This document shows positions 51,001 to 53,693 of a stretch of DNA of 53,693 nucleotides, piece by piece (positions within the stretch are counted from its first letter, which is position 1; each line of letters starts with the position of its first letter). The position numbers were made by a program. This DNA is from Halobacteriota archaeon (GTDB lineage: Archaea; Halobacteriota; Halobacteria; Halobacteriales; Haloferacaceae): assembly GCA_051747545.1 (NCBI GenBank), contig JBNJGG010000001.1:1-53693 (forward strand). Reading direction: 5' to 3'.

Positions 51001-53693
51001 GTTCCGAGTTCGTACGTCGCCTCGGGGTTGACACCCACCCCGACACTCGGCTCGAAGTCGATCGTGAGCGCGTCGGAGTCGTTCAACGAGACGACGCCGC
51101 CGGTGTCGTCTGCGTCGCCCGGCTCCAGTGCGATGATGCCGTTCGAGTCAGAAACGACATCGACGCTGGCCGAGCGGTCCATCGAGACGGTCGTGAACGC
51201 CGAGGTTCCGACCACTGCGAAGCCGAGCAGTATCATCGTCGCCATGAGGACGACCGAGAAGTTCTTCGAACTCATCTGCCGCCCTCTATCTGATTGTGTC
51301 TGGTAGATCTATGCCCTGCGTCGTCGGAAGCCGCGTTGGTCGAGTTGGTCATCGTGTATTACCTGTCGACGCCTGCGTCAATTGGGCACGCGAGAGTGGG
51401 CGTCAACTCCGTGCTCGCGTGTGGTGTTGCCATAGTGGCGTCACTCTCCCCTTCCGATGGAGCTACCTTGTTCAATTACCCGATTCACAATCTCAGTCGG
51501 ACATTTCACGGGCTCAAAGAGACTTTTAATCGGATCTTCGGCGAATTTCGGTCGATGATGCGGTGGCCGGTGTGGCCCCGAACAAACCAGCATCGAACCG
51601 GGGCGACCGAACACCATTTCGCACCATCGAAGCGAGGCGACGACGCGCTCGGAAATCGCGACAGGACGGTGATAAGCGGGGCGAGCTACGTGTTTCGGGC
51701 GTCGGCCATCCGTCGCCCCCGTGGTACCAGCAGTGAGTATCTCTGACCGGTTCGATGGGGCTCAATGACCCTTTTAATCCGTGCAATCGGGGTTTGTGGT
51801 CGTTCGTGGGCCACTCGTCGAGACACGCAGGCACGTCTGTGAGTCGGGGAGTTACCGTCACCCTCACGCGACGCACGGAGGGTACTTCCCACGTTCCTGA
51901 AATAGAGTGCGGTATTTAATACGTGTCAGCGTGTCGATTGGACAATGTCAACGCAGGAAGTTCAACTTCGAAGCACGATCGCGGGGTTCACTGCGGAAGG
52001 GAAACTCCACACGCTGAGCGTGTGGTTCATTCTGGCGCTTCGGCTCATGATGGGGCTGGCGTTCTTCCAGAGCGGGTTCGACAAGGTATTGTCCGGAAGC
52101 TTCAGCGCCGCGGGGTATCTCCAGAACGCACCATCGTCGAACGGGAGTCCTGTCGCCGACCTCTTCGCCGCGATGGGGTCGACGCCGTGGTTCGTCGAGT
52201 TCGTGAACGTCGCCGTCCCGTGGGGAGAAGTGCTCATCGGACTCGGCCTGATAGTCGGCGCGTTCACCCGCCTGGCCGCGTTCTTCGGCGCGTTCATGAT
52301 GCTCCTGTTCTACCTCGGTAACTGGGACATCGGCCACGGCTACATCAACGGCGACTTCGCGTACATGCTGGTGTTCCTCTCGGTCGCGGCCTTCGGTGCC
52401 GGTCGAATCCTCGGGCTCGACCGGTACATCGAACAGTACCAAATCGGCGGACAACCACTGGTCGAGCGCTACCCGGTGGTTCGGTACGTCCTCGGGTGAG
52501 ACTCACCCGCGTCTGACGCGTCTCCCTCCGCGGGCGCGATTGGGTCACAGATCGGCTAGTCCCGAGTTTTTCGGTCGTACCGAGTACTGAGAGTCAAACA
52601 GGCACCGCTGATGGGCGTGCGTCGATATCGAATCGATCGGTGCGGATAGAACGTCGAATCGAGTGAAACAGTCGCGGGCAGCCCAGTGGCGTGACTGGCT
52701 ACGCCAGCACTTCCGACTTCAGCCCGCCGACCGTCTCCATCACCGCGTCGACGTGTCGCTCGGTAACGTCGAACTCTTCGAGCGTCGTCTGCAGGTGGGC
52801 CGCGACTGACTCAAAGTGTGCTTCGGTGAGGTCAAGGTGGGCGTGTGCCTCTCGGACGGACTCGCCGGTGTACTCGGTTGGCCCGCCCGTCGCAGCGCAC
52901 AGGAACGATGTCTGATGTGCGCGCAACCGCTGTGTGTCGACGCCGTCGAAAAATTCTTCCAGGCTCTCGTCTGCAAGGACGCGTTCGTAAAACCGGTCGA
53001 CGACGGCTGCAATCGACGCCCGCCCGCCGAGTTGCTCGTAGAGCGTCTCCGAGTCGGACATGGACAGAACATGTATATTGTTATTGATAAAACTTGTTAT
53101 AAATGTAAGAAACTAGGTTGATAATTTCTGCGAGATTATTAATATCCTTGTTGGACTAAGAGATTCAACTAGAGACAGAATTGACTTCATGCGAGTTTTA
53201 TGTGACCATAATTTATTTACAGTCGCTCGACACTGAGTACGGCATGAACAGAGACGCCACGATCCGAGCGACGCGGGGGTGGGTGGCAAATGGAGGCCGC
53301 CTTGTAGCGCCGGGGTGGGCGCGCTCTTCGACCGCCGGGCACGGAGTGTGACACATGCACGGAATCGTACTGAAGCAGTTGAAGGACTTCGTCGTCGAGC
53401 AGTACGACCACGAGGCGTGGCGGACAATCCAGGCCGAGGCCGGAGTCGACGGCGCGGTTTACGTCCCGGTAACGGAGTATCCGGACGAGGACGTTCTCGC
53501 GCTCGTCGGTGCCGCCTCGGAACTGACGGGAATCGAAACACCCGACCTCCTCGAGGCGTTCGGGCAGTTCATCGTACCGCCGCTCGTCCAGACTTACGGC
53601 GTCCACGTCGACAGAGAGTGGACCGGTCTCGACCTCATCGCCAACGTCGAGACGTACATCCACATGGCCTTGCGAGCAAAGCAGTTATCCAGC

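Follow-up and report, generated by a model that had tools for sequence, protein, structure and literature searches.

A haloarchaeal H-NOX protein predicted to act on a dedicated chemoreceptor of a second chemotaxis-like cluster

The HNOB domain of H-NOX proteins was reportedly defined in a paper of 2003. In the portions of the reviews drawn on here, NO-type H-NOX proteins are described together with kinases or c-di-GMP enzymes, and MCP-linked H-NOX appears only in the form of O2-binding fusions. The passages cited name a distal Tyr as the determinant of O2 binding in H-NOX (PMC12329717, PMC8738867), and the 2022 review states, in the part used, that no high-resolution structure of an H-NOX with its partner exists (PMC8738867). 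As for archaeal chemosensory systems, CheF is described in the cited extracts as necessary for motor switching in Halobacterium salinarum and Haloferax volcanii (PMC2666748, PMC7289035), and the che2 region of Methanosarcina as the only CheF-less archaeal che region known at that time (PMC2666748). Non-motility roles of such systems are put forward as a hypothesis in the relevant excerpt of PMC9680633.

The window, by which we mean the whole stretch of 53,693 nucleotides that was analysed, is held entirely by contig C1 of the genome under study (G000), a member of the order Halobacteriales. The features referred to below, including those on contigs C178 and C24 of the same genome, are as follows.

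52699-53061, minus strand: group I truncated globin, cyanoglobin (GlbN)-like, 120 aa (PF01152, E 6.7e-25).
53062-53354, no strand: divergent intergenic region of 293 bp, A+T-rich toward the globin, likewise in relatives.
53355-53693, plus strand: H-NOX residues 1-113, open at the contig end (PF07700, E 2.5e-20).
53661-53663, plus strand: codon of the H-NOX proximal His103, aligning with His103 of Shewanella H-NOX through the relative P0008.
C178:4798-4592, minus strand: C-terminal half of H-NOX at the end of C178 (PF07700 profile positions 112-162, over the cut-off).
C178, MCP from 2502: MCP and CheW (cut), after the Usp and Lrp/TrkA-like genes.
C24, CheA part 24113-21804: part of CheA, then CheC, double CheC and CheD; the contig begins inside CheA.

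Our preferred reading, which we consider somewhat probable, is that of a soluble heme NO sensor, with a zinc-cysteine site likely reporting oxidation, that is predicted to dock on a sensor-less receptor and would set a second, dedicated CheA-CheY pathway, the target of which is probably not the CheF-archaellum switch.

The survey's finding had presented the window gene as a stand-alone H-NOX with the heme His, divergent from a group I truncated globin, and this is borne out by the open reading frames, the Pfam matches and the alignment of His103. The group I truncated hemoglobin family has NO dioxygenase activity. Membership of the window globin in this family agrees with its profile, its nearest solved relatives, the Tyr and Gln of its pocket and its proximal His; its top PDB matches are GlbN and other group I truncated hemoglobins (1s69, 3aq5 and 1idr, E about 1e-21). 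In the alignment with 1s69, residues Tyr25, His49, Gln50 and His73 correspond to Tyr22, His46, Gln47 and His70, and Leu46 stands at the position of Gln43. Both promoters likely lie within the spacer at 53062-53354. In the order, a globin was observed within about 6 kb of 13 of 51 His-type H-NOX loci.

Matches to PF07700 were found in 96 of the 401 sampled genomes of the order. All matches outside G000, except that of G109, which lies below the cut-off, were fetched as 127 loci, 126 of which gave a called gene. The resulting 130 H-NOX genes comprise 55 that keep the proximal His and 75 that are His-less, figures that are to be read as counts and not as tests because kin are not independent. Forty-one of the 55 His-keeping genes (37 loci in 37 genomes) lie directly before an MCP gene, or before a second H-NOX gene that is followed by the MCP; the remaining 14 have no neighbouring MCP, and one of these is cut by a contig end. 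Among the His-less genes, 71 of 75 lie behind a PRPP synthetase gene and none lies before an MCP, and the 13 that were placed in a tree form one clade (support 100/100). The two types of H-NOX that had been proposed from fewer loci are thus recovered on this larger set. That the Pfam domain was already listed in databases was also correct: it is found in 104 relatives, many of them (Haloferax, Halorussus and others) named "heme NO-binding domain-containing protein". H-NOX genes were, moreover, seen inside che clusters of non-halophile archaea, and this locus is therefore not alone, either in having an H-NOX in an archaeon or in having one next to an MCP.

The 37 genomes with an H-NOX-MCP locus fall into 15 with a second che cluster and 22 with the pair only (19 in f12 and 3 in f7). 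In all seven of the pair-only loci listed, the H-NOX frame ends directly at the first codon of the MCP or runs into it, and each of three pair-only genomes tested has another che cluster of the CheB/CheR type. H-NOX and MCP are separate open reading frames in all loci; a search of longer proteins for H-NOX fusions gave only two kinase fusions among 8000 scored candidates, which is weak evidence. A chance neighbourhood of the two genes was excluded by the abutting genes, by the single receptor clade described below and by the His-less copies, none of which is followed by an MCP. Two metagenome loci carry the globin and H-NOX genes without an MCP.

A full-length relative of the window protein, P0008 (74% identical), has a Shewanella H-NOX as its best match (E 3e-23), and its structure model (pLDDT 90.6) reaches a TM score of 0.91 to Shewanella H-NOX 4u9b. 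Its heme residues His103, Pro117 and Tyr133-Ser135-Arg137 and its zinc-site residues Cys140, Cys165 and Cys173 align with those of the Shewanella protein, the fourth zinc position being Glu162. This putative fourth ligand is mostly Glu in the His-type copies, including the C178 half, against the His or Gln of the zinc-site type of Shewanella, V. cholerae and Caulobacter. In the genome under study, the window piece carries the Gly70 hinge and His103, and the C178 piece, which corresponds to P0008-type residues 112-178, carries the Pro, the YxSxR motif and the second Gly hinge; with PF07700 matched on both halves and the fold of the family predicted for P0008, the sequence and fold marks of HNOB membership are present. 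YxSxR occurs in 55 of 55 His-type proteins, and the retention of the His and of YxSxR in MCP-linked copies, noted earlier for fewer rows, is found to be strict, since His103, Pro117 and YxSxR are invariant across 38 linked sequences.

In O2 binders of the 1u4h type, Tyr140 sits five residues past the motif Arg. At the equivalent position, all 55 His-type copies have V, L, W, F or I and the C178 half has Leu, and Trp9 of the O2-binding type occurs in none of the 55. O2 sensing by the window protein is unlikely because the distal Tyr is absent from every His-type copy, so that the O2 option of the survey's finding loses its footing; from its residues, the protein is predicted to detect NO (and CO) or oxidants. 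The zinc-cysteine site likely reports oxidation in addition: in the parts of the two reviews cited, oxidation activates the H-NOX proteins of V. cholerae and Caulobacter through a three-Cys site (PMC12329717, PMC8738867).

The latter observation leads to a rival explanation, in which the protein responds not to NO but to oxidation, either of its zinc-cysteine site or of its heme iron, the pathway being an oxidant sensor and the globin a part of redox defence. It would fit the bacterial precedents just mentioned and the three zinc Cys, which are kept in 55 of 55 His-type copies and still in 64 of 75 His-less ones. It would also fit the genomes, three of five tested, that have no NO-producing nitrite reductase. 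Neither NirK over the cut-off nor a domain of the qNor-type NO reductase was found in G000, G255 or G666, whereas both are present in G229 and G205. We nevertheless judge this explanation unlikely, in view of the heme residues that are invariant in the linked sequences, as expected if heme is selected for, of the conserved neighbour, which is itself a heme globin, and of the His-less copies, which never stand beside an MCP. As NirK and qNor were not found in G000, the NO perceived in the preferred reading would be environmental; a link to the hosts' own denitrification was discarded, holding in only two of the five genomes tested.

What had been missing from the earlier account is that in relatives the H-NOX pair heads a second chemotaxis-like cluster. 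In G019, G160, G229 and G368 the order is globin (divergent), H-NOX, MCP, CheW, CheY, CheA, CheC, double CheC and CheD, in accordance with the globin-H-NOX-MCP order reported before. In ten g41 genomes it is globin, CheY, CheA, double CheC, one or two H-NOX, MCP, CheW, CheC and CheD; the cluster is split in G153, and the stretch retrieved for G111 shows no globin. In G255 the H-NOX cluster is present without a globin. The same H-NOX-che arrangement is present in the named records of Haloferax marinum, Salinigranum salinum, Halocatena marina and Halorussus, which were left out of the counts because some may equal sampled genomes. Pfam matches to CheA, CheW, CheY, CheC and CheD are all present in the L103 cluster. 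CheB, CheR and CheF were found in none of the 19 H-NOX-type cluster loci checked, whereas all six control che loci (from among L129 to L136 and L128) gave CheB and CheR. A search with the cluster CheY (E<=1e-44) found 23 of the 401 genomes, 15 of them with H-NOX in the cluster and 8 without. Besides this cluster, G229, G019 and G205 each have an ordinary che system elsewhere in the genome.

The receptor on C178 has two hydrophobic membrane helices with a loop of some ten residues between them, and a ligand-binding domain is absent. It is 56% identical to the MCP of the G229 cluster, and the C24 genes are 56-66% identical to their G229 counterparts. In the MCP tree its sisters are the cluster MCPs of L103, L076 and L140 (100/99). 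The 16 H-NOX-linked MCPs in this tree group together in a single clade, to the exclusion of 20 others (97/90); the tree left out seven long-branch controls and two H-NOX-less g41 receptors, with which the SH-aLRT support is 92. In the CheA tree, the CheAs of the g20 clusters are the sister group of the C24 CheA (100/98), and the cluster CheAs stand apart from six CheB/CheR-type rows (100/99). We claim no more than this separation, since the CheA tree was built without an outgroup and includes long branches as well as four truncated duplicate rows. The kinase motifs of CheA and the deamidase Cys/His motif of CheD are intact. A count of methylation motifs by their consensus gave no distinction between linked MCPs (mean 1.35, n=46) and the others (1.10, n=29).

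The H-NOX-receptor complex was modelled with the G229 pair, the receptor being given from its last HAMP to its end in two copies, together with heme and zinc. The score was 0.74, and the best of three controls reached 0.01. The score mark is attained by 116 of 157 solved complexes and by 2 of 215 mismatched pairs, proportions that hold roughly here, since the score is a model confidence and custom alignments and ligands lie outside its calibration. The runs agree in at least 95% of contacts, with a partner pLDDT of at least 88. In the predicted interface, the H-NOX (residues 4, 7, 32-40, 79-84, 105 and 109-112, in both subdomains up to the His103 helix) would contact fragment residues 64-84 and 325-355 of the receptor, which are the methylation helices under the last HAMP. 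All of these H-NOX residues fall within the 113 encoded in the window, and the window H-NOX and the C178 receptor keep the core interface residues, with Gln for Glu79.

Conservation across the orthologs can be compared with this prediction, and conservation inside the alignments used for the complex is not independent of its score. Agreement with the prediction comes, however, from groups that lie outside those alignments: Val37 of H-NOX is found in 37 of 37 MCP-linked copies, in none of the 75 His-less copies and in none of four second-paralog copies. Ser77 of the receptor is kept in 45 of 45 linked fragments, one of them a truncated duplicate, and is replaced by Asp in G067 and G143, both g41 genomes whose cluster has no H-NOX. 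In these two, representing a single loss event, the interface is identical to that of the sisters at 18-19 of 31 positions, as against 25-30 of 31 among the H-NOX-bearing sisters. No solved H-NOX-receptor complex was seen among the PDB search matches.

On the basis of this model, we suggest the following course of events. NO would bind the ferrous heme of H-NOX and release His103; the release would move the two subdomains that straddle the interface and so alter the packing of the receptor helices. This change would retune CheW-CheA activity, and the dedicated CheY would carry the signal. CheC and CheD would then reset it, in the manner of the loop of B. subtilis treated in the cited section of PMC3579733 but here without methylation. 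Oxidation of the zinc site may act as a second input, and the O2-binding globin likely clears NO, or sets its level, when O2 is present. Going by the bacterial H-NOX systems, one might guess that the output is a switch in surface behaviour or lifestyle involving pili or adhesion. Gas vesicles were tried as an output and rejected, PF00741 being present in only one of five genomes tested and absent from G000. Type IV pilus genes adjoin the globin in four g20 loci and lie 45 kb off on C1; they are not beside the cluster in L140 or in the g41 loci, and the adjacency was taken as shared synteny.

It had been proposed that H-NOX feeds haloarchaeal taxis. The part of this proposal that stands is the action in trans on a chemoreceptor, to which gene order, the one receptor clade and the predicted complex all point. 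The remainder, which would have the pair sense NO or O2 and feed, as a further input, the ordinary archaellum taxis route from CheA through CheY to CheF, seems to us quite unlikely. It accords with the rule, stated in the extract cited, that haloarchaeal taxis joins a sensor in trans to a transducer (PMC7289035), and with the detection of CheF (E<=1e-55) in 16 of the 37 H-NOX-MCP genomes (238 of all 401), including the bare-pair genomes G254 and G404. These last two, however, are the only ones among the 22 pair-only genomes, as against 14 of the 15 cluster genomes, so that 21 of 37 show no CheF at this threshold. At E<=0.001, none was found in G255 or G666 (the genome of L143), both with H-NOX clusters, or in six genomes with the H-NOX-less cluster (G048, G178, G228, G231, G411 and G324). 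Archaellin was likewise not found in G255, G666 or G048, the last being a single contig that is 99% complete. The cluster proteins also score below the haloarchaeal equivalog cut-offs (CheA 527.5 against 950, CheY 146.5 against 200). The cluster CheYs do not have the acidic start of helix 4 seen in two archaellum-linked CheYs, a test that is weak because CheYs of the CheB/CheR type in f7 and f12 likewise miss the first acidic residue. An O2-sensing version would, in addition, require the distal Tyr that the His-type proteins do not have.

The genome under study bears on the same question. It keeps an intact arl cluster on C37, with archaellins and arl genes present, which speaks for a taxis input. 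On the other side, CheF (E<=0.001), CheB and CheR were not found in it, and the C178 MCP is the only MCP found, compared with 16 and 18 matches in G229 and G019. Moreover, the genes that flank the ordinary cheY-cheC-cheD in G229 lie 338 bp apart within contig C185, and these three genes were therefore lost and do not fall into an assembly gap; by these sequences, the ordinary taxis system has been lost in G000. Since 14 of 15 cluster genomes have CheF and G000 keeps its archaellum cluster, cross-talk to the motor is possible within the preferred reading of a dedicated pathway.

The survey's finding had also pointed out that the gene is cut by the contig end, and the cut is confirmed at residue 113. 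Compared with the G229 H-NOX, the window piece covers residues 1-113 (75% identity) and the C178 piece residues 112-178 (58%), both stop-free, and at the DNA level the two fall in register on a single relative gene, overlapping by 6 nt. They are almost certainly, judging by this fit, one H-NOX gene. The outermost 17 nt of the C178 end match neither the relative gene nor anything elsewhere in the genome, and no piece crossing from the end of C1 into C178 was found in three public DNA contig sets from one study. The possibility that C178 is a foreign contig or bears a second paralog was excluded by the in-register break and by an ordinary tetranucleotide correlation (0.97). As stated before, a transducer lies three genes from the C178 half, the Usp and Lrp/TrkA-like genes intervening. 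The gene's own MCP link thus still runs through the inferred C1-C178 join, with two genes between. C1, C178 and C24 would be neighbours in the genome, with cheY in the gap between them; CheY and the N-terminus of CheA, which would fall in the C178-C24 gap, were not found in G000. That the system of G000 is instead a decaying remnant, with a real break in H-NOX at residue 113 and no coupling to the receptor, is very unlikely: the 17 foreign bases beside a 6-nt duplication (a pattern possible from insertion), the two genes inserted ahead of the MCP, the missing cheY and the ordinary taxis system already gone would suit it, but both H-NOX halves remain similar to the G229 protein and free of stops, H-NOX, MCP, CheA and CheD retain their interface and catalytic residues, and the assembly is a fragmented one (92.9% complete, 257 contigs, 422 of 514 contig ends without overlap to another contig). 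Such a remnant would leave the intact clusters of the relatives unaffected.

A search of the full-text literature found no haloarchaeal gas-sensing H-NOX pathway; supplements (e.g. tables S5-S7 of PMC9680633), subscription journals and MiST lay outside its scope and may list such clusters. The individual parts are already known, and what is likely to be added here is an H-NOX of the NO/redox type that works in trans on a dedicated receptor in a second pathway free of CheB, CheR and CheF. The predicted pair offers a confident residue-level model that is open to testing, and the cluster is a concrete candidate for an archaeal chemosensory system with a non-motility role, occurring in the cultured and harmless genera Haloferax, Halorussus, Salinigranum and Halocatena. 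A wider reading, which we offer tentatively and regard as possible without leaning towards it, is that haloarchaea may hold an undescribed class of non-taxis chemosensory systems. In these, an NO/redox H-NOX would clamp the methylation helices sideways and stand in for CheR/CheB adaptation as well as for the ligand-binding domain, and a dedicated CheY would lead to a CheF-independent output; the same chassis would take other inputs, such as a receptor that has an outer domain of its own or, in gas-vesicle clusters, a retinal-type rhodopsin.

When compared with known systems, the window globin shares its heme-pocket residues with GlbN and other group I truncated hemoglobins (1s69, 3aq5, 1idr), but it has Leu for Gln43 and its gene heads a chemosensory cluster. 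The H-NOX is closest in sequence and fold to the stand-alone, HnoK/HqsK-linked proteins of Shewanella oneidensis (4u99/4u9b), Vibrio cholerae and Caulobacter, which, in the passages cited, also combine the proximal His, YxSxR, a missing distal Tyr and the three cysteines, and which act in trans on a phosphorelay, as is proposed here (PMC12329717, PMC8738867). In contrast to these, which have a class I kinase or c-di-GMP enzyme encoded next to them, the haloarchaeal partner would be a chemoreceptor with a CheA cluster (the neighbour is an MCP in 41 of 55 His-type cases), the fourth zinc ligand is mostly Glu instead of His or Gln, and the host is archaeal. In the H-NOX-MCP fusions of strict anaerobes (Caldanaerobacter/Thermoanaerobacter tengcongensis, 1u55/1u4h), too, H-NOX feeds a methyl-accepting receptor, as is predicted here. 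The haloarchaeal proteins are, however, separate, with lateral docking predicted below the last HAMP, and they stand outside the O2-binding class because they have Leu or Val for Tyr140 and no Trp9.

Methanosarcina che2, compared here by description only, is also a second archaeal che cluster without CheF and of unknown output; it belongs to another lineage, and no H-NOX or globin input is reported for it in the portion cited (PMC2666748). A sensor gene beside a two-helix transducer is likewise described, in the extracts used, for SRI/HtrI, SRII/HtrII, BasB/BasT and CosB/CosT, and homologues of CheA, CheW, CheY, CheC and CheD are shared with the archaellum-linked che cluster of Halobacterium salinarum and Haloferax volcanii (PMC7289035, PMC3579733). 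From these haloarchaeal taxis systems the present one differs in its location away from the arl genes, in its gene content without CheB, CheR and CheF, in its separate CheA lineage and in its sensor, a predicted cytoplasmic heme protein.

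The second chemosensory gene set, which lacks CheB and CheR and in some genomes includes an H-NOX gene, was also observed without H-NOX. Two of the fetched loci carry the same cluster type as the H-NOX-bearing one, minus the H-NOX gene:

L255 (genome G324), 4579-17635: che cluster without CheB, CheR and H-NOX
L130 (genome G048), 953-15835: che cluster without CheB, CheR and H-NOX

In both loci, a rhodopsin gene (PF01036) that keeps the retinal-type Lys lies behind the cluster transducer, and a gas-vesicle gene cluster surrounds the che genes. Neither CheF nor archaellin had a match in the G048 genome, and light control of buoyancy is a possible role of this arrangement. 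Other receptors were identified at four further loci:

L126 (G178), 7145-16326: CheB/CheR-less cluster adjoining an opsin-like gene and a short transducer
L124 (G411), L125 (G228), L127 (G231): CheB/CheR-less cluster

The opsin-like gene of L126 is missing the retinal Lys motif. The receptors of the other three clusters (796-845 aa) have an outer domain of their own, for which no Pfam match was obtained, and no CheF was found in these three genomes.

Complete clusters were observed in lineages without detected CheF:

L128, L135, L136, L260-L267 (families f7 and f12): complete cheW-Y-B-A-C-C-D-R cluster

These clusters sit apart from the arl genes, and in L128 two pilin-like genes follow the cluster. 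At E<=1e-55, CheF was found neither in family f7 (0/9) nor in genus g36 (0/20).

The other genes of the window include the following:

756-7959: genes of the PilB/PilC-like ATPase and membrane type, accompanied by five that resemble pilin genes
47667-51275, minus strand: single run of genes for signal peptidase S26, a DUF5305 protein and two small proteins that look secreted
51945-52499: DoxX-family membrane protein, convergent to the globin gene

The pilus-type genes are 67-70% identical to genes adjoining the globin gene in relatives, and the cobalamin cluster (window ~14300-27430) and MinD (contig C24 of the same genome) share their neighbourhood. The DoxX-family gene was not found adjoining globin in the relatives' loci compared.

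Several other types of H-NOX were distinguished:

L043, L047, L060, L077, L143, L144, L158: second His-keeping paralog in the che cluster
L089, L094-L101, L112-L121, L200-L253: His-less clade, PRPP synthetase upstream
L257 (G642), 934-9649, and L258 (G456), 4004-6123: H-NOX directly 5' of cheA, in non-halophile archaea of the same phylum

The second paralog, which forms a clade of its own (98/93) and is without Val37, a predicted receptor-binding residue, may have a different binding partner. In the His-less clade, PRPP synthetase precedes the gene in 71 of 75 cases and the zinc cysteines are kept in 64 of the 75; this clade is a candidate heme-free redox or metabolite sensor. A pyridoxamine-phosphate-oxidase-like domain gene abuts some His-type H-NOX genes without an MCP (L045, 4629-5855; L069, 6619-7680; L143, 9052-9678), and the related H-NOX domains of proteins P0105 and P0106 are fused to Ser/Thr kinase domains. 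The H-NOX of L257, which lies within a complete che cluster, and that of L258 differ from the haloarchaeal one: His and YxSxR are present, the zinc Cys are absent and the Tyr140 site is Phe. Their link to che genes is separate from the haloarchaeal one.
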